A DNA stretch of 64,000 nt from Chloroflexota bacterium (GCA_965221905.1 OZ244922.1:512001-576000); one strand, 5' to 3'; shown: positions 11,651-20,768, counted from the stretch's first letter. The notes: generated from the letters alone by a model not told the origin. Program-made: numbers and translations.

Positions 11651-11992
11651 TACGGTACTCCTTTCGATTGATTACGCCCTTGTATTGATCTGTTTGAACA
11701 CCAATCGCGCAGCAGTTTATTTAGGGGAATGGTATTTTCCTGAAAATCGAATTCTGCGCTAGAAGCGCAGCTACCCATCTATGAAAGGCCGCTGCCGTCG
11801 GCGGTCTGCAACTGAGTTGCGCATTCTTCGCGCACTCGCTATGCCATCCTTAGCCTACTCGTCTCTACACCAAATGGCTAGCCTACCGCGCCCCGCTCGC
11901 GCAGCGGTCATGCCGCTGTTTCTAAGACGGGTAATTGGCTCTTCGTTCCGATCAGCGGCTATCTCGAACTTAATCCACCCTGTATCCCGAAG

Positions 11993-12135
11993 GAGACCTT
12001 GGAGTGACTCCGTCATTCCGGCGAAGGCCGGAATCCAGAGGTGCGTGGGTAGTTCGTGGTTGCTAGTGGTCAAGCCATTCCTCACCCCATCCCGACCTTC
12101 CCCCGTCAAGGGGGAAGGGGTATTGCAAAGGTCTC
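11993..12135. mobile_element. MITE (~143 bp) with GAGACC...GGTCTC ends and CGAAG target duplication
   Basis: Terminal inverted repeats, 5-bp direct flanks at 11988-11992 and 12136-12140, homologues at 37057 and 60932. Confidence 0.8.
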
Positions 12136-12206
12136 CGAAGAGGGAAGCGTCGCATTGGCATAACGGGGGATATGGGCGCTCCACCGCACATGCTTCGACA
12201 GGCTCA

Positions 12207-12465
12207 GCACGAACGGTGGAGGGTTACTTGTGCACGAATGGGGAAGGGACACCTGTGCACGAACGGTGGAGGGTTACCTGTGCACGAATGGGGAAGGGAC
12301 ATCTGTGCACGAACGGTGGAGGGTTACTTGTGCATGTACGGGAAGGGACACCTGAGCATGTACGGGGAAGGGACACCTGTGCATGTACGGGGAAGGGACA
12401 CCTGAGCATGTACGGGGAAGGGACACCTGTGCATGTACGGGGAAGGGACACCTGAGCATGAACGG
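12207..12465. repeat. Tandem array of ~10 x 25-bp units (GCAYGWAYGGKGRAGGGWYAYYTGW)
   Basis: Directly visible; alternating unit variants, no unique spacers. Confidence 0.9.
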
Positions 12466-12763: not shown

Positions 12764-14044
12764 ATGACTGAACCACTGTTGGCTGCGTTTGCTGAAGTTG
12801 ACATCACTCCCGCCGTAGAGACGACGCAAAACGGCAAGCGGAGGCGGCGCAGCTTCACCGTGCACGATCCGCTGATGGCGCGCCTGTGCGTACTGCGCCA
12901 AGGCGAGCAGACTGCGGTGTTGGCGGGCGTTGACGTATTCGAGCTGGGCGGCGGCTTCGAGGAGCGAGTAAGCGCCCACTTGGCGGGAACCGGCATCAGC
13001 AGCGAGTCACTGCTCTTTTCACCCTCCCACGTGGGCATGTCGCCGATCTCGCATTACGGCGCGTACATTATCGTCTTCGCCCAAGACCTGATCATCAACG
13101 ACTTTGAGGCGGAGTGTGCGGCGCGGATTGCCGGGGGCATCCGCGAAGCGCTGGACAGACTCACGCCGGTGCGCGTCGCCGTGGGGGTGGGGCACGCGCC
13201 GGAACTCACCCGCAATCGCCGGTGGCTCAAACCCAATGGCGCCGTGGAGATGGTGGGGTTGAAGTCGCCGATTCCCACCAACACCGATTGGCGCGAACAA
13301 GGCATCGACGATACGGTGCGTGTGGTTCGCTTTGATACCGTGGCAGGGGAGCAGCTTGGGGCGCTCGTGAATTTTGGCTGCCACGCACTCTGTTCGGATG
13401 ATCGCTATGGGCACATAACCGCCGACTATCCGCAGCATGTTGCCGCGGTGTTTCGCAAGGTGGCGGGCATACCGGTGGTCTTTACGCAAGGCAGCATCGG
13501 CGAACAGATACCGATTGAAGCGGAAGGCGCTCATTCCGCCCGCCGCATCGGCCACGCGCTCGGCGCCCGGGCGCTCTATGTCTTCGAACAGATCGCGCCC
13601 AGTGAGACACCGGTGCTGGGAGTTCACCGCGGGGAGGCAACCGTACCGGCGCGGCTGGTGGCAGAGGAACCGGAAGCAATGCGCTTAGACCTGCGCAACT
13701 CCCGCGCTCGCTACCGCCGGTACCTCTATGAACGCTTCCATGAGAACCCTTCCATTTCGTATCCGATCCGGGTGGTCACGCTCGGCGATGCGCTTGCGCT
13801 CGTAGCGCTGCCCGGCGAGATGTTCCATGAAACTGTGCTCGCCATTCAAGAGGCATCGCCATTTGCCCACACGATAGTGCTCAGCCGGGCTTCGCGCGAC
13901 GTGGGCTACGTGCCGGTGCCCAGCGCGTTTGCCCAGGGCGGCATGGAGCCGGCGCTCACATCGTTAACGCCGGAATCCGAGCCGGTGATTCGGCAAAGCG
14001 CACTTGAACAGCTTTACCGTTGCAGAGGGGCGGTGTTGGCGTAG
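12764..14044 (+). CDS. Neutral/alkaline ceramidase-like hydrolase
   Basis: DITP, HDPLMAR, NRR, NFGCHA, ADYP, LPGEMF, GYVP motifs. Confidence 0.75.
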   Translation: MTEPLLAAFAEVDITPAVETTQNGKRRRRSFTVHDPLMARLCVLRQGEQTAVLAGVDVFELGGGFEERVSAHLAGTGISSESLLFSPSHVGMSPISHYGAYIIVFAQDLIINDFEAECAARIAGGIREALDRLTPVRVAVGVGHAPELTRNRRWLKPNGAVEMVGLKSPIPTNTDWREQGIDDTVRVVRFDTVAGEQLGALVNFGCHALCSDDRYGHITADYPQHVAAVFRKVAGIPVVFTQGSIGEQIPIEAEGAHSARRIGHALGARALYVFEQIAPSETPVLGVHRGEATVPARLVAEEPEAMRLDLRNSRARYRRYLYERFHENPSISYPIRVVTLGDALALVALPGEMFHETVLAIQEASPFAHTIVLSRASRDVGYVPVPSAFAQGGMEPALTSLTPESEPVIRQSALEQLYRCRGAVLA

Positions 14045-14963: not shown

Positions 14964-15406
14964 GTACGTTTGTTTGGGAGTAATGTAATATTTGACGGAG
15001 AAAACCCTTAAGTACACGGAATCTTTGCGTCCTGGCAGTGGAGTGCCGTGCGTCTCTAATGGGAGCCAACCGCTGCTCCACAGCGTGCAGGGCGGTGTTG
15101 CGCCAGGCCGCGGGAAGGTCTGCTACCGGAGCAGTGGCGGAAACTAAATGAGAGACGTCTGACGGGAGCGAATAGCCTCGTCTGCGCGATGGACATTTCC
15201 AAACCAGCTTGTTTGCAGGCGGGACGCGGGAACCCCACTCTAGCCGATCGATCGTTCGTCTGCTGCAACACATGCTATTTCCCCCTGCAGTGAACGGCAT
15301 AGTTGCAGCCGTGGTTTTTCCTTGAACCTATGATATCGCCATGCTAGAGTGAAGCAGCGAAAACGCAGTAGTGTATGCCATGTCTTGTGCGAGGGAAAGC
15401 GTCCCC

Positions 15407-16447
15407 ATGACCGTAGAGCGCGCAGACGGCCTGTTTGGGGCTGTGCAGGAGGTCGATGGAATTGCGCGACGCGCTGTGCGCATTCTCCACGCGCGGTTTG
15501 GGCTGATTTCGAATAATCGAGCACTCATCAGTAACCCGGAGTTCTTCGATAGCCGCACGGTCATTCAATCGCTCGTGACGAACGTATTTGCGGTGCCGGA
15601 GATTCCTTTTACCGAGCCGCTGGACGCACACATGTACATTCTGGATCTGCCCCAGGCGACGCCGTCCGTCAGAATTGGCGAACAGGAAGTCTATGCCGTG
15701 GCGGACTTTAGCCGGCTGGAGGCGGCATGCTCGGATCGGCGCTGCTCGCTCTTCGGCAACTTAGGCTTGTTCTTCCGCTTTGCATTGGCGCTGCTGGAGC
15801 GCCGCCATGGGATATTCAGCTTCCATGCCTCGGCCATGTACATTGCCGAGCGAAACGAGTTGATGCTGGTGGTGGGCGGCGCCGGCGCCGGCAAGACGGT
15901 GTTCTTGCTGGAGGGGTTGCGGCGCGGCTACCGGGTCTTTAGCACGGAGATGACCCATCTGGAATTTCGCGGGGGTGATGTGGTCTTTCACAAGGGTTCG
16001 CTGGTGGACAACATCCGCCAGGGCAACTTCGTCTATGATTTCCCGGACGCTGCGGAGCGGCTCGGCCTAGACCTGCCCGCAGTGGAGAACGTTTGGGCGC
16101 ATAAGTTGGCAGTGGACCTGGCGCCGGTTGCAACGGAGGCTGACGAGTTGGTCAATCCCAGACTCTCGCTGCTCTTCCCCAAGATCGAATCGGGAAGTGA
16201 GACTGCCGTAGTCTCAGACGTGAAGCCCGGTCCCAAGATGGTCAAGCTTCTGTTTGACAACGCATCCGAGAAGATAGGGGGCACGGCGTTGCTCTATGAT
16301 TGCATCCCTATCGCGGGCGCCGACGCGCCGGACATAGCGGCAAAGCGGTTAGAAGGCATGAACCGCTTGGTGCACGATCATTCCGGTTTGATCATCCGCG
16401 CCAAGGACATTCTGGCCGGCACACACAATTGTATGGAAGGACTCTAG
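15407..16447 (+). CDS. HprK/PEPCK-like P-loop kinase of unknown substrate
   Basis: FHASAM...LVVGGAGAGKT, resembling the HprK-related LHAS..G.SG.GKS pattern. Confidence 0.65.
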   Translation: MTVERADGLFGAVQEVDGIARRAVRILHARFGLISNNRALISNPEFFDSRTVIQSLVTNVFAVPEIPFTEPLDAHMYILDLPQATPSVRIGEQEVYAVADFSRLEAACSDRRCSLFGNLGLFFRFALALLERRHGIFSFHASAMYIAERNELMLVVGGAGAGKTVFLLEGLRRGYRVFSTEMTHLEFRGGDVVFHKGSLVDNIRQGNFVYDFPDAAERLGLDLPAVENVWAHKLAVDLAPVATEADELVNPRLSLLFPKIESGSETAVVSDVKPGPKMVKLLFDNASEKIGGTALLYDCIPIAGADAPDIAAKRLEGMNRLVHDHSGLIIRAKDILAGTHNCMEGL

Positions 16448-16564
16448 GCGAAGCTGAGTGAGTTTAGCGCATTGACAGCCATTGTCATTCCGAGCGAAGC
16501 GAGGAATCTAGAGTGGTCGACCTGGTAGAATATCTGACTTAAGAAAATAAGGAGAGAATAGCAT

Positions 16565-17368
16565 ATGCCGCAAGCTTGGGAAGGAATTGTCGATCCGCCG
16601 GTACGGACACGTGTCAACGAAAAACCGCGCAGTACCGGGTATACGATGGTGCTCGATAAGGGGCTTGGATTGCACGGCACCACCGATCTCATGCAGATGG
16701 CGCATCATGTCATCGATTCCCTAAAACTGACGTTTGGCACGTCGGCATTCTACGAGGAAGACGTGCTGCGGGAGAAGATTGCGCTGGTCCAAGCGGCCGG
16801 CGTGGACATCTATCCTGGAGGTACGTTCCTGGAGGCGGCGGTGGCCCAAGGCAAACTGCCGGAATATGTAGTGCGTGCCAAGGCCCTGGGATTTAACACC
16901 ATCGAGGTCTCCGACGGCACGATCGAAATGGATGCTGCCACCCGCAGCGACATAGTCAAGCGCGCCTTAGACGCCGGCTTCAAAGTGCTCACTGAGGTGG
17001 GGAAGAAGGACCCTAAAGACGCCATTGCCACCTCCACCATGCATGAACAGATAGCCGCCGATCTTGCACAAGGCGCTGCTAAGGTGATTGTCGAGGCACG
17101 GGAATCCGGTCATGGGGTCGGAATCTTCGATGCCGGCGGTGACGTGCAGACCGAAATGGTGCAGGAGATTCTGGGTGGCATCAACAACGTAGAAGACCTT
17201 ATCTGGGAAGCGCCGATCAAGAATCAGCAGCAGTGGCTCATCCTGGAATTCGGTCCAAACGTCAACTTGGGCAACATACCGCCGGAAGATATCCTGGCGC
17301 TGGAGGCGCTGCGCTGCGGCATGCGGGGCGATACGCTGAAGCGCGCCCTCGCCGGCACGTGGCCGTAG
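16565..17368 (+). CDS. comA: Phosphosulfolactate synthase
   Basis: TMVLDKG, KLTFGTS, YPGGT, IEVSDG, EVGKK, VEARESG, WEAP, FGPNVNLGNI, LEALRCG.RGDT. Confidence 0.93.
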   Translation: MPQAWEGIVDPPVRTRVNEKPRSTGYTMVLDKGLGLHGTTDLMQMAHHVIDSLKLTFGTSAFYEEDVLREKIALVQAAGVDIYPGGTFLEAAVAQGKLPEYVVRAKALGFNTIEVSDGTIEMDAATRSDIVKRALDAGFKVLTEVGKKDPKDAIATSTMHEQIAADLAQGAAKVIVEARESGHGVGIFDAGGDVQTEMVQEILGGINNVEDLIWEAPIKNQQQWLILEFGPNVNLGNIPPEDILALEALRCGMRGDTLKRALAGTWP

Positions 17369-17696
17369 AGATTGCTTTCTCATATGTGGGCACCAATCGA
17401 CCGCAGTGGGAGATCTTTATTCTAAGTTTGTGATATGTCTTGCACGTTTCTACCGAGTCGGTAGGATGATACTAGCTAATGGGCATTTGCCCTCACCCTA
17501 ACCCTCTCCCACGGGAGAGGGGACAGTTGCCCCCTGGCGGACAGTAGACACCAGATCCTAGAGAAAGGAAACTCGTTTTCGTAGTTCACTCGCAAAGCAA
17601 TAGGGGCTGCATCATGTGGGGGCGCCCTCGGACAGGGTTTTGGCGAGTCTCCGGAGTGCAAGTAGGCCTGGTAGGAACTATGAGGTTCTGCCTAAC

Positions 17697-18971
17697 GTGG
17701 CTACAGCAGAAAATGCAGTCAAATACGGCGTAGAGACCGTCACCTTCGCCCTGCCAGATGCTGCGGACGTGACGGTGATCGAGCCGCGCTCGGTTAAGGG
17801 CGTATCTGACCCGGTGGCAGAAGTGGAGCAGGCACTCGGCGAGGCGCTGGCGCAAGGGTTGCTGGAGCAGCCGGGTACGACCGCCATCGCCATTAGCGAT
17901 GCGACGCGTCCAGTGCCAAACGACACTCTGCTGCCGCCGCTACTTGCTCAACTGCACGGAAAAGGCATTAGGGAAGAAGAAATATCTATCATCGTTGGCA
18001 CCGGCAACCACCGCGCGGCAACGGCGGAGGAACTCCCGCAACTCGTTGGCGCCGACATTGCCCGACGCTACCGCGTTTTTTCCCACGTCTACGACGACCC
18101 GGCGCAGCTTGTCCGCCTGGGTGAGACGAGCCGCGGCACGCCGGTGGTCATCAATCGGACGTTTGCTGAGGCGAATACGCGCATCATCGTCGGCATGATT
18201 GACCCCCATCAATTTGTCGGCTACACCGGCGGCTGCAAGGGCGCGTTCATCGGCCTCGCGGGCGGTGAGACCATTGCCGCAAACCACTCGATGCTTAGCG
18301 ATCCGGCGGCAAAGCTGGGCGTCTGCAATGGCAATCCGGTTCGTGAGGATATTGATGAACTCACTGACTTTCTCTCGATTGACCTTGTCATCAACGTCGT
18401 GCTCAACACTGCGAACGAGATAGTGCGCGTCTTTGCGGGCGGTCCGCATGACGTGCTCGCGGCGGCGGTGCCGCTGGTGCAGGATGTGTGCGAAACGGCA
18501 GTGCCTCACGCCATGGATGTGGTCATTGCGTCTCCCGGCGGCTATCCCAAAGACATCAACCTCTATCAGGCGCAGAAGGCGCTAGCCCATGCCAGCGAAT
18601 TGGTGCGCCCAGGCGGCAGTGTAATTCTGGTGGCAGAATGCCGCGAAGGCGCAGGCGATGATCTATACGAGGCCTGGATGGCTGCCGCCAGAACGCCGCA
18701 AGAGGTGGTAACCCGGTTCGAGCAGGAGGGCTTTCGCATGGGCGCGCACAAAGCGTTCCTCTTTGCCCGCAGCATGCTCAAGGCGCATACTTACCTTGTT
18801 TCCCGCGGGATTGGACCCGACCAAGCACAAAAACTCCACCTAGTTTCCGCACCAACGATTGAGCACGCGCTGGCGGCGGCGCTGCGCGACATCGAAGGCC
18901 GACCGCGCATCGGTATTATGCCGCGCGCCTCGTCCACCATTCCGCGCATCATGGCGCCGGCACGTATATAA
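17697..18971 (+). CDS. larA: LarA-family nickel-pincer 2-hydroxyacid racemase/epimerase
   Basis: SDATRP, GTGNHR, PHQFVGYTGG.K, NHS, GGYPKDINLYQAQK, AECREG, GAHKA. Confidence 0.9.
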   Translation: MATAENAVKYGVETVTFALPDAADVTVIEPRSVKGVSDPVAEVEQALGEALAQGLLEQPGTTAIAISDATRPVPNDTLLPPLLAQLHGKGIREEEISIIVGTGNHRAATAEELPQLVGADIARRYRVFSHVYDDPAQLVRLGETSRGTPVVINRTFAEANTRIIVGMIDPHQFVGYTGGCKGAFIGLAGGETIAANHSMLSDPAAKLGVCNGNPVREDIDELTDFLSIDLVINVVLNTANEIVRVFAGGPHDVLAAAVPLVQDVCETAVPHAMDVVIASPGGYPKDINLYQAQKALAHASELVRPGGSVILVAECREGAGDDLYEAWMAAARTPQEVVTRFEQEGFRMGAHKAFLFARSMLKAHTYLVSRGIGPDQAQKLHLVSAPTIEHALAAALRDIEGRPRIGIMPRASSTIPRIMAPARI

Positions 18972-19185
18972 TTGCGGAAAGCCTAGAGCTTACTGACTTT
19001 CAAGAAAGTACGCGCTCTTGAGACTCGTCATTCCCACGAAAGCGGGAATCCATCCGCTCCGAGTAACCAGGCATTTGGCGTGCGCCGGAGCGACGGAGAG
19101 TATCAGATTAGCTTCTGGGGTGTGTACGTCAGAAGCAAGTGGCAAACTTCCATGTAATTCCTGTGACTTTCCGAGGAGAAGATAA

Positions 19186-20532
19186 ATGGCTACAGCAAAT
19201 GGCACATCCCCAGCGCAACTCAAGCAGATGTTGGATGAGACGATAGACGCGCAGTTCGATGCGATCACCGGCATTGCCGACCGTATCTTGCGGCACCCGG
19301 AGACGGGGTACAAGGAATTCGAGACCGCCGGAGTGGTTGACGAGTGGCTGACGCAGCTCGCTATTCCCCACCATACGGATATCGCCGTTACGGGTGTGAA
19401 GGCCGTGCTCGATACGGGACGACCGGGGCCGAGTGTGGCGATTATGGGCGAGTTGGACGCGCTGCCGGTACCGGATCACCCGTATGCGCATCCTGAGACC
19501 GGCGCCGCACACGCGTGCGGTCATAATAACCAGATTGCGACTATGCTTGGCGCCGCGGTTGGGTTTGCGCAGTCCGGCGTGCTCGACCACCTGTGCGGCA
19601 AGCTGGTCTTCATGGCGGTGCCGGCGGAAGAGTATGTGGAGGTGGGCTTTCGGCAATCCTTGCGCGACCAGGGAACAATCGAGTTCCTGGGCGGCAAGCC
19701 GGAGTTCATTCGTCTGGGCGCGTTCGATGACGTGGATTTCGCCATGCTGGTGCACACGAGCAGCCGCGCTGAAGACGGCATTGTCTGCATGACGGAGACG
19801 AGCAACGGCACGGTCGCGAAGCACGTCACGTACCATGGCCGCGCGGCGCATGCCGCCGGTGCGCCCCATAGGGGCATCAACGCCCTGAATGCCGCGACAC
19901 TGGCATTCACGGCAATCCAGTTTCAGCGCGAAACCTTCCGTGACGAGGACACCGTGCGCGCGCACTTCATCATCACGCGCGGCGGCGAGGTGAACAACGT
20001 AATCCCGGCCCTTGTGCAAATGGAGGGCAAGGTGCGCGGCAAGACCATGGATGTCATGCTGGAAGCAAGCCAGAAAGTGGAACGCGCGCTCAAAGCCGGA
20101 GCGCTGGCTACGGGAGCGACCGTGCACATCGAGACGTTTCCCGGCTACTTCCCCATGATTCCCCATCCGCCGCTGGCTGACCTCTATCGTGATAATGCCG
20201 CCGCCCTAGTGGGAGAAGAGCACATCTCAACGCGAGCCCATAGTACCGGCTCTACAGACATGGGCGACGTGATGAACGTCGTGCGCGCAATCCAGCCGGC
20301 TGCGGGTGGCGCGACGGGAACCGGCCACGGGAACGACTTCTTACTCCATGACGCCGATCATGCCATTATCATGCCGGCGAAGCTCATGGCGCAGACGGCG
20401 ATTGACCTGCTGGCGAACGGCGCGGAAACGGCGCATAGGGTAATGGAAGAAACCAAACCGCCCTTTACGAAGGATGAATACCTCACCCAACTCCGCAGCC
20501 TGGCGCAGACGGTGGAATATGACGGCACGTAA
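19186..20532 (+). CDS. M20/M40 family amidohydrolase
   Basis: HPETGYKE, ELDAL, HACGHN, PAEE, GSTDMGD. Confidence 0.9.
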   Translation: MATANGTSPAQLKQMLDETIDAQFDAITGIADRILRHPETGYKEFETAGVVDEWLTQLAIPHHTDIAVTGVKAVLDTGRPGPSVAIMGELDALPVPDHPYAHPETGAAHACGHNNQIATMLGAAVGFAQSGVLDHLCGKLVFMAVPAEEYVEVGFRQSLRDQGTIEFLGGKPEFIRLGAFDDVDFAMLVHTSSRAEDGIVCMTETSNGTVAKHVTYHGRAAHAAGAPHRGINALNAATLAFTAIQFQRETFRDEDTVRAHFIITRGGEVNNVIPALVQMEGKVRGKTMDVMLEASQKVERALKAGALATGATVHIETFPGYFPMIPHPPLADLYRDNAAALVGEEHISTRAHSTGSTDMGDVMNVVRAIQPAAGGATGTGHGNDFLLHDADHAIIMPAKLMAQTAIDLLANGAETAHRVMEETKPPFTKDEYLTQLRSLAQTVEYDGT

Positions 20533-20768
20533 TCTCATGTTGCTCGGTGCTGCCCGACCCGATCGCCAACCATAGACATTGGAACAACTGGGTGAGGGAT
20601 CGACAGCCTGACTGCCCGTCGCTTGGTTTCTACAAGAACCGAGAGAGTTTGCCTAAAGTTACAGGCATTCATTGAACTGTCAGATGATAGCTGTACAATG
20701 ACTAGGAAAGAGGTTTCTTGCGCTAGCGTCTTTAGAATGTAGTTGCAGTGTACAATGAGTAGGGAGGA

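Follow-up and report, generated by a model that had tools for sequence, protein, structure and literature searches.

A kinase of predicted PEPCK-like fold conserved beside ComA and a possible ATP-dependent route of sulfolactate desulfonation in Chloroflexota and other bacteria

We have analyzed a 64,000-nucleotide stretch of a Chloroflexota genome (GCA_965221905.1, OZ244922.1:512001-576000; "the window" below), in which the gene for a 346-residue P-loop kinase is followed by genes for the phosphosulfolactate synthase ComA, a LarA-family racemase and an M20 amidohydrolase, all on the + strand by open reading frame (ORF) calling. The kinase gene followed by comA is a module conserved across several phyla, and the kinase has a predicted fold resembling that of phosphoenolpyruvate carboxykinase (PEPCK). 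We propose that the two enzymes interconvert sulfolactate plus ATP and phosphoenolpyruvate (PEP) plus sulfite and ADP, in vivo mostly towards breakdown, and we give this proposal an even chance of being correct. C3 sulfonates (sulfolactate, 2,3-dihydroxypropanesulfonate, cysteate and the breakdown products of sulfoquinovose) carry a large sulfur flux in the sea and in soil, and three ways out of sulfolactate are known: SuyAB, sulfopyruvate decarboxylase plus Xsc, and cysteate lyase. The module may add a fourth, mechanistically distinct route of sulfolactate desulfonation, with priming by ATP and with ComA acting as a sulfite-lyase that gives PEP and not pyruvate; the likelihood that we attach to this falls a little short of even. 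To our knowledge, ComA has so far been known only as a sulfonate-forming enzyme. Sulfolactate desulfonation by kinase, ComA and LarA had been put forward from the sequence of the window (the original prediction). Taken as a whole we regard it as partly supported, with added weight from comparative genomics. The computational checks that it named were all favorable, with the three-gene set found in a subset of loci; the substrate of the kinase, the direction of ComA and the activity of LarA on sulfolactate are what we infer.

A survey of one genome per species yielded 79 loci with relatives of the kinase (tblastn matches shorter than 120 residues were dropped; flanks extend up to 8 kb, and many loci end early at contig ends). 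comA lies directly downstream of the kinase gene and on the same strand in 77 of these; of the other two loci, one lies on a contig that ends 325 nt past the kinase (L086) and one is a partial match (L093). The two genes are separated by 6-142 nt in 62 loci outside the genus of the window and by 119-748 nt in the 15 loci of the genus, where repetitive extragenic palindromes (REPs) are inserted. Going by record titles, the host genomes belong to Chloroflexota (including Dehalococcoidales), Thermodesulfobacteriota/Syntrophales, Methylomirabilota/Rokubacteria and a small number of other groups, so that the predicted co-localization of kinase and comA holds in several phyla. The complete three-gene arrangement, by comparison, holds in a subset only, since LarA is near in only 22 of the 79 loci besides the window, and the M20 gene is restricted to the genus. 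One module-bearing metagenome-assembled genome labeled Sphingomonadaceae (L029) has a ComA identical to that of a Chloroflexota locus (L119, G086:C13), and its bin label is probably wrong.

Within an evenly drawn sample of 401 Chloroflexota genomes, the kinase is present in 16, including all 11 of the window's genus, and all 16 also have ComA. A further 46 genomes have ComA without the kinase (62 of 401 with ComA in all), and 144 of the 401 carry a ComB-family gene; the totals of 62 and 144 rest partly on genomes flagged as unpublished (G227, G272, G145, G038 and G344). ComB was not found in 13 of the 16 kinase genomes, nor in any of the 11 genus genomes.

The kinase reading frame is open from 15371 to 16447, and the ATG at 15407 gives a protein with the length of its database homologues. 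All 13 aligned homologues keep its P-loop (Gly169-Thr176), in which Lys175 and Thr176 are invariant. The family alignment also contains an invariant histidine 17 residues before the P-loop and an invariant glutamate 17 residues after it, which we take to be the layout common to PEPCK and HprK/P. The homologues (664 in a 90%-clustered protein collection) are all unnamed or "hypothetical", and the family comprises 190 representative clusters at E≤1e-3 in 1.84 billion proteins; longer, fused forms were not found at E≤1e-10, which is weak evidence. No Pfam family matches the kinase at E≤0.01, the HprK and pyruvate phosphate dikinase (PPDK)-regulator models included. A search of PDB sequences with a profile of the kinase returned chance P-loop matches only (E≥0.56), and an ESM Atlas search returned only "hypothetical" clusters. 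The sole NCBIfam match, to the phosphonate kinase FomB, is below threshold at 12.9 bits, and this assignment was rejected.

An AlphaFold2 model of the kinase was calculated from the 13-sequence alignment (pLDDT 85.6, pTM 0.83). Foldseek ranked ATP- and GTP-dependent PEPCKs at the top, with ~370 aligned columns and a query-normalized TM-score of ~0.47; the match to the Thermus thermophilus PEPCK has an E-value of 7.5e-9. In a second, independent structure alignment, the model superposes onto ATP-PEPCK with a Z-score of 12.2 for 269 residues (model 26-358), onto the catalytic domain of HprK/P with Z-scores of 8.4-9.3 and a root-mean-square deviation (rmsd) of 2.5-3.4 Å for ~120 residues (model 147-358), and onto pyrophosphate (PPi)-dependent PEPCK with a Z-score of 6.1, compared to 4.9 for the next match outside the PEPCK and HprK/P rows. 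The kinase is thus modeled as a compact two-domain PEPCK-like P-loop fold that is HprK-like in its C-terminal half. By Pfam and the PDB profile, it is a member of neither sequence family, and although it has fold and P-loop in common with both, it differs in size: 346 residues, compared to >500 for PEPCKs, with which its identity is ~10-12%, and to ~310 for HprK, which has a different N-terminal domain. "HprK-like P-loop kinase", as the protein had been called, is fair for the C-terminal domain, while the whole protein is closer to PEPCK.

The resemblance of the C-terminal domain to HprK/P (rmsd ~2.5 Å at best) could mean that its target is a protein and not a metabolite: as a regulatory kinase/phosphorylase in the manner of HprK/P or the PPDK regulatory protein, the enzyme would switch ComA or PPDK on and off, and the PPDK gene does lie upstream in 14 loci. 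We consider this very unlikely. The PEPCK match is the stronger one and spans the whole length including the N-terminal domain, the HprK and PPDK-regulator families are not matched in Pfam, and the gene is tied to PPDK in only those 14 loci, compared to 77 of 79 for ComA.

The ComA of the window scores 308 bits against PF02679 (cut-off 25) and 337 bits against TIGR03849 (cut-off 280), and thus belongs to the family at equivalog level. It matches the solved Methanocaldococcus jannaschii ComA (1QWG) with 180 bits over residues 24-259 and the Bacillus subtilis homologue (1U83) with 143 bits. In a quick IQ-TREE search with 97 ComA sequences (methanogen and Bacillus sequences left out; ORFs <180 residues and alignments <150 residues dropped), the kinase-linked ComAs form one group of 83 rows with an SH-aLRT support of 90, which takes in three pyruvate kinase-linked rows from two genomes (G235 and G106). 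The seven ComB-adjacent ComAs and the PrpD-adjacent ComAs each form a clade of their own with a support of 100, apart from the kinase-linked group. The PrpD-linked clade occurs in other Chloroflexota, where comA is directly downstream of an MmgE/PrpD-family gene in three of five kinase-less ComA loci inspected (L103:6432-8801, L106:6663-8925 and L107:602-2966).

The source genome is a single contig of 3.52 Mb that is 99.6% complete. It contains a second, divergent ComA (G000:C1:1909587-1910303; L101:8537-9370) in a sugar-modification cluster, with neighbors encoding an Amidohydro_2 protein, a xylose-isomerase-like TIM barrel, an NAD epimerase/dehydratase, a DegT aminotransferase and a methyltransferase, and with a sulfatase nearby. 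Owing to this unrelated gene context, the second copy was rejected as part of a kinase-type module; it may serve a pathway for a sulfonated sugar or glycan.

In the proposed pathway, the kinase would phosphorylate the 2-hydroxyl of (R)-sulfolactate with ATP to give (2R)-phospho-3-sulfolactate, and ComA, running backwards, would eliminate sulfite from this intermediate to give PEP. The PEP would be passed to pyruvate kinase or PPDK, or enter gluconeogenesis, and the sulfite would be exported, oxidized or reduced. Where a LarAH5-type racemase is present, it would convert (S)- into (R)-sulfolactate and allow both enantiomers to be used; a D-2-hydroxyacid dehydrogenase resembling phosphoglycerate dehydrogenase (PGDH) may contribute in some loci. 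Since the kinase gene is so tightly tied to ComA, the simplest assumption is that the enzyme acts on ComA's own metabolite, phosphosulfolactate. The biosynthetic exits from this metabolite appear to be missing, as no ComB, ComD or XcbC-type partner was identified. A search of the complete genome with PF04029 gave no matches for ComB, and TIGR03845 gave none for ComD. The genome has seven genes of the Ldh_2 (ComC) family, all outside the window and none beside either comA copy. The absence of comB and comC from the window, as stated in the original prediction, is therefore borne out, and its check for comB or comC accompanying comA elsewhere gave the same answer, with no comB in the genome or in the genus and no ComC-family gene adjoining comA. 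Three of the Ldh_2 genes (ComC/malate-sulfolactate dehydrogenase family) are arranged in tandem on the minus strand (G000:C1:397886-401523). Housekeeping pyruvate kinase and PPDK are present in the source genome, as are genes of the TauE and sulfite-oxidase families.

An enzyme with the modeled PEPCK fold would be well placed to phosphorylate O2 of a C3 acid that has a β-anionic group. Structures of PEPCK bound to β-sulfopyruvate, which serves as an oxaloacetate mimic in these crystals, occur among the Foldseek matches of the kinase model. As sulfolactate is isosteric with malate and 3-phosphoglycerate, the recruitment of a malate-racemase-type LarA, a PGDH-like dehydrogenase and a PEPCK-fold kinase to one pathway would be understandable. 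By a rough estimate with textbook free energies, the overall reaction from sulfolactate and ATP to PEP, sulfite and ADP is roughly balanced; breakdown would be pulled forward at low sulfite and PEP, because one molecule is split into two.

The genes that accompany the module elsewhere are informative with respect to direction (the counts come partly from tblastn with matches <100 residues dropped). PPDK is encoded directly upstream and co-oriented in 14 of the 79 loci, and is bona fide by TIGR01828 (1355 bits vs 843). Subunits of pyruvate:ferredoxin oxidoreductase are found near the module in 9-12 loci, CoA-transferase A/B in 11, TctC/TctA of the tripartite tricarboxylate transporters (TTT), the family of the sulfolactate importer SlcHFG, in nine, and the PGDH-like D-2-hydroxyacid dehydrogenase, which is closest to phosphoglycerate dehydrogenase but below its cut-off, in 20. 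TauE follows comA directly in 11 loci by Pfam (of 17 candidate ORFs; 10 by tblastn), all of Methylomirabilota type, and fits sulfite disposal. A representative order in Thermodesulfobacteriota (L037, L039) is CoA-transferase A, CoA-transferase B, 2-hydroxyacid dehydrogenase, PPDK, kinase, ComA, TctC, TctA.

Pyruvate kinase, which works from PEP to pyruvate, is inserted in the module of one Chloroflexota genome (G235), in which we counted three paralogues of the kinase and six matches to the ComA family. One of its loci (L118, G235:C25:11500-24500) has the order TctC, HpcH-type aldolase, 2-hydroxyacid dehydrogenase, LarA, kinase, pyruvate kinase, ComA, and the pyruvate kinase scores 409 bits against TIGR01064 (cut-off 306). 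In another (L117, G235:C84:57000-76388), ComA has pyruvate kinase immediately before it and a class II ketose-bisphosphate aldolase after it; the kinase is 9 kb off, beside a PPi-dependent phosphofructokinase and a Zn-dehydrogenase. These sets with PPi-phosphofructokinase and aldolase, or with HpcH-type aldolase, may be sulfosugar breakdown clusters that feed sulfolactate. In the second genome (G106; L108:4284-6334, G106:C3), the start of a ComA placed as sister to the kinase-linked group is overlapped by a 402-residue pyruvate kinase-like protein, which matches the pyruvate kinase barrel only and scores below the cut-offs; a weak homologue of the kinase lies 5 kb away on the other strand. With pyruvate kinase between the genes, PPDK upstream, and oxidoreductase and CoA-transferase alongside, PEP is likely the product of ComA and oxidized further. 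The uptake-type TTT binding protein adjoining the module suggests an imported substrate, and the racemase, which is ill-suited to a stereospecific synthesis, suggests that this substrate arrives as mixed enantiomers.

The same neighbors bear on the possibility that the chemistry runs towards sulfolactate: ComA would fix sulfite onto PEP, and the kinase would take the place of ComB, transferring the phosphate to ADP or, by an HprK-like phosphorolysis, releasing it as pyrophosphate. The sulfolactate would be a solute or the product of sulfite detoxification, and TauE might export it. This direction is quite unlikely in our view, although it has several attractions. ComA is similar at equivalog level to the biosynthetic enzyme, something must remove the phosphate if ComB is missing, HprK/P does have phosphorylase activity, the overall reaction is near equilibrium on the rough estimate given above, TauE-family proteins have also been proposed as sulfonate exporters, and Mo/FeS oxidoreductases of PhsA/TtrB type near the module (10-12 loci) could produce sulfite. 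However, a stereospecific synthesis would hardly call for a racemase or an uptake-type TTT binding protein, the pyruvate kinase, PPDK, pyruvate:ferredoxin oxidoreductase and CoA-transferase neighbors look catabolic, and no known use of sulfolactate appears in the genomes; ComD was not found. The oxidoreductases in question are a PhsA/TtrB-like Mo/FeS-NrfD pair in Methylomirabilota (10-12 of the 79 loci). An assignment as PhsA/TtrB was rejected, the best matches being far below the cut-offs, and we make no claim of a Soe-type sulfite dehydrogenase.

The LarA reading frame of the window is open from 17616 with a likely start at 17697; homologues have 424 residues, and the protein consists of Lar_N and LarA_C domains. 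It scores 520 bits against NF052595 (nickel-dependent malate racemase, LarAH5 family; cut-off 462). Five of five kinase-linked LarAs tested from other phyla also pass this cut-off (504-558 bits), while the LarA of G235:C25 is below it (357 bits). LarA specificity has been related to the positions of Trp358 and Thr359 in LarA1, where His/Gln and Lys mark the malate-racemase group, the lysine being assigned to the distal anionic group (PMC11770544). These positions are His-Lys in the window LarA and in eight of nine other kinase-linked LarAs, and Asn-Lys in the remaining one (L118). The genome's second LarA paralogue has Trp-Glu and is a true lactate racemase (524 bits, cut-off 460), so that the window LarA is the genome's only LarAH5-type gene. 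The window LarA thus resembles the LarAH5/MAR1 malate racemases (PMC11770544, PMC7583248) in equivalog and signature, and differs in its genomic context, which is ComA and the kinase; sulfolactate is a sulfonate isostere of malate. The predicted occurrence of larB, larC and larE elsewhere in the genome proved correct, with LarC at 453 bits, LarB, adjoining LarC, at 289 bits and a LarE-type protein at 321 bits (TIGR00268). LarA accompanies the module in 10 of 15 genus loci and in 12 of the 64 others. The M20 protein has Peptidase_M20 and M20_dimer domains and scores 210 bits against TIGR01891 (cut-off 154); its gene comes after LarA in 10 of the 15 genus loci, was found at none of the 64 others, and is therefore tied to LarA within the window's genus only. 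In one genus genome (L024:10312-13250), the LarA matches are in two pieces ~1.5 kb apart, which looks like a disrupting insertion.

LarA homologues racemize many 2-hydroxy acids, glycerate among them, according to the LarA superfamily paper. Together with an uncharacterized kinase family, a neighboring dehydrogenase that is closest to phosphoglycerate dehydrogenase (below its cut-off) and ComA clades in contexts as unrelated as PrpD, a sugar cluster and ComB, this would allow the module to act on some other 3-substituted 2-hydroxy acid, such as glycerate, with an enolase-like ComA releasing a group other than sulfite along with PEP. We regard such a substrate as improbable. The window ComA is above the phosphosulfolactate synthase equivalog cut-off and closer to the methanogen enzyme than to the Bacillus homologue (180 vs 143 bits), and TauE is directly downstream in 11 loci. 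Furthermore, cells already have enolase-type routes for glycerate.

Sequences from RNA libraries extend over the cluster. Eight metatranscriptomic runs from two studies contain 22-28% of the sequence words of 15300-20600. In the four runs that were examined at contig level, contigs with 95-97% identity cover the kinase and comA and bridge their gap (X4 record 25, X2 record 11 and X1 record 3, from two studies). Further pieces extend over most of the M20 gene and, in places, over larA. None of the contigs runs from comA into larA, and 17601-17954 and 18840-19016 had no contig cover, which is no evidence of absence. RNA contigs of other loci break off at the repeats, with loose ends at 16483 and 16514-16515, at 17490 and 17521-17524, and at 19026 and 19053-19057. 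On the repeats themselves, RNA contigs pile up and join many other contexts, with a word depth of up to ~10,500 at 19017-19193.

Several points weigh against sulfolactate breakdown by the module. Sulfite addition to PEP is the direction reported as favorable, and elimination would need low sulfite. PPDK is reversible and could equally supply PEP. The direction-specific pyruvate kinase is found in just three loci of two genomes, and TauE, a broad family, in just 11 loci of one lineage. In 57 of the 79 loci there is no LarA within the fetched flanks, and three of the 16 kinase genomes do carry ComB, on a different contig. Contigs from RNA libraries are not transcripts, and carry-over of DNA is possible. 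A profile search of the window proteins identified no obvious sulfonate transporter adjoining the cluster, and the genome has, elsewhere, a split pair of UxaA-type, SuyAB-like dehydratase genes that may or may not encode SuyAB. Ahead of the kinase, ~7 loci have a two-subunit class I fumarase, which fits C4-dicarboxylate metabolism better. The window LarA scores as a malate racemase and has the malate-racemase His-Lys signature, and sulfolactate was not found in the LarA superfamily paper. Lastly, neither ATP- nor GTP-PEPCK was found in the source genome, nor GTP-PEPCK in any of the 11 genus genomes; on the modeled fold, the kinase could fill the missing PEPCK role of the genus.

The last three of these points lead to the principal alternative, in which the kinase is a small PEPCK analogue that converts oxaloacetate and ATP into PEP and CO2, with ComA running forwards to phosphosulfolactate and with the LarAH5 malate racemase, fumarase, dehydrogenases and TTT transporters delivering C4 acids. 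The PEPCK fold over the entire kinase, the missing canonical PEPCKs, the malate-racemase assignment of LarA and the upstream fumarase all agree with it; TTT transporters classically carry carboxylates, and PPDK can, as noted, make PEP. Nevertheless, PEP is a central metabolite, for which a dedicated supplier kept with ComA in 77 of 79 loci would be superfluous, and a gene that is rare (16 of 401 genomes) and, in that sample, always accompanied by ComA is unlike a general gluconeogenic enzyme. The phosphosulfolactate formed would have no consumer, as neither ComB nor ComD was found in the genome and no ComB among the annotated neighbor clusters. Any PEP formed would be drawn off where a pyruvate kinase gene separates the kinase from ComA, and the kinase protein is considerably shorter than PEPCKs, to which its identity is low. 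We consider a PEPCK analogue unlikely, principally since a PEP supplier is needless, every genome of the sample that has the kinase also has ComA, and phosphosulfolactate has no consumer.

The desulfonation pathway proposed here has parallels in known systems. Glycerate 2-kinase plus enolase follow the same logic, phosphorylation of the 2-hydroxyl and then β-elimination of the 3-substituent to give PEP; the leaving group is water there and would be sulfite in the module, and the enzymes are unrelated. The ComA/ComB system of coenzyme M (CoM) biosynthesis (methanogens; YitD/YitC in Bacillus) has the same equivalog-level ComA family and the same intermediate, phosphosulfolactate; however, it pairs ComA with a phosphatase, whereas the module pairs it with a kinase and is proposed to run in reverse. 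Compared to the full ComA-ComB-ComC-ComDE pathway, ComB and ComD were not found in the window's genome, and ComB-linked ComAs are a separate clade. ComA is established as the catalyst of the first step in CoM biosynthesis, where its partner is ComB or, in bacteria, XcbC (PMC9457059). In that XcbB/XcbC pathway, as presented there, the phosphosulfolactate produced by the ComA homologue is likewise handled by an enzyme other than ComB, but XcbC eliminates phosphate for biosynthesis, giving sulfoacrylate, whereas the module would eliminate sulfite and give PEP.

The SuyAB route (Chromohalobacter, Paracoccus) has the same proposed substrate and, once PEP is converted to pyruvate, the same products, pyruvate and sulfite. 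Both enantiomers need to be funneled into it as well, which the SlcC/ComC dehydrogenase pair achieves by acting as a racemase (PMC12421959), and TTT-type transporter genes are near the module in nine loci. By profile search, the module kinase and ComA are without UxaA/SuyB-family domains, and the module differs in that it would invest ATP, trap the enol as PEP and racemize by nickel-pincer LarA instead of two dehydrogenases. The closest precedent is a SAR11 TTT-transporter island flanked by two ComA genes, for which conversion of imported phosphosulfolactate to PEP by ComA was proposed in 2025 (PMC11796062). The direction from ComA to PEP, the TTT transporter and the breakdown context are the same as in our proposal, so that the idea of a reversed ComA is not wholly new. 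That proposal involves uptake of phosphosulfolactate itself, and the passage on the island mentions no kinase and no racemase. A literature search, covering mostly titles and the openings of abstracts with supplements left out, found no paper linking ComA to a kinase or to LarA. The module is best filed as a newly proposed C3-sulfonate desulfonation route built on a new kinase family, the reversed ComA itself having been proposed before.

The features of the cluster are listed in Table 1. The four genes are co-oriented at or near the coordinates given in the original prediction, which had also noted REPs between the genes; these are real, with palindromes in all three gaps. They belong to three different short palindrome families, each present in ~30 (28-36) genomic copies. 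A scan for promoters and terminators found no + strand promoter-like or terminator-like site between the cluster genes, which decides nothing. The cluster is flanked by genes for two sulfatases, amidohydrolases, dehydrogenases and an oligopeptide-type ATP-binding cassette ATPase (profile search). The genome had been described as rich in sulfatases, and is moderately so, with 21 sulfatase-like places in 3.52 Mb (matches <200 residues dropped), three of them within the window. Upstream of the cluster, a 426-residue ORF (12764-14044) matches nothing in Pfam or NCBIfam and shows conservation in four of 15 fetched genus loci; a 224-residue ORF (11781-12455) is Arg-rich and without family, and is probably not a gene.

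Table 1. Coordinates of the kinase-comA-larA-M20 cluster and its intergenic repeats, in window positions.
Feature	Position	Strand	Basis and proposed role
P-loop kinase, 346 residues	15407..16447	+	ORF, Walker A GGAGAGKT, PEPCK/HprK-like predicted fold; proposed sulfolactate 2-kinase
REP-like palindrome, kinase-comA gap	16483..16513	no strand	36 genome-wide matches (blastn-short)
ComA-family phosphosulfolactate synthase	16565..17368	+	PF02679, TIGR03849, 1QWG; proposed PEP-forming phosphosulfolactate sulfite-lyase
REP-like repeat, comA-larA gap	17489..17524	no strand	28 genome-wide matches (blastn-short)
LarAH5-family nickel-pincer 2-hydroxyacid racemase	17697..18971	+	Lar_N, LarA_C, NF052595; proposed sulfolactate racemase
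REP-like repeat, larA-M20 gap	19027..19056	no strand	31 genome-wide matches (blastn-short)
M20/M25/M40 amidohydrolase	19186..20532	+	PF01546, PF07687, TIGR01891

If the proposed pathway is correct, it would provide the first function for a new PEPCK-fold kinase family, naming a so far unannotated family in several phyla of mostly uncultivated bacteria, and the first sulfonate substrate for a nickel-pincer LarA. It would account for the orphan comA genes that are labeled "coenzyme M biosynthesis" in bacteria that do not produce CoM. For the hosts, PEP would be delivered directly, sparing the cost of its synthesis from pyruvate. The route would have as its hosts Chloroflexota associated with sponges or corals, Syntrophales along with other Thermodesulfobacteriota, and Methylomirabilota, and would represent a new exit from sulfolactate in the sulfur cycle.

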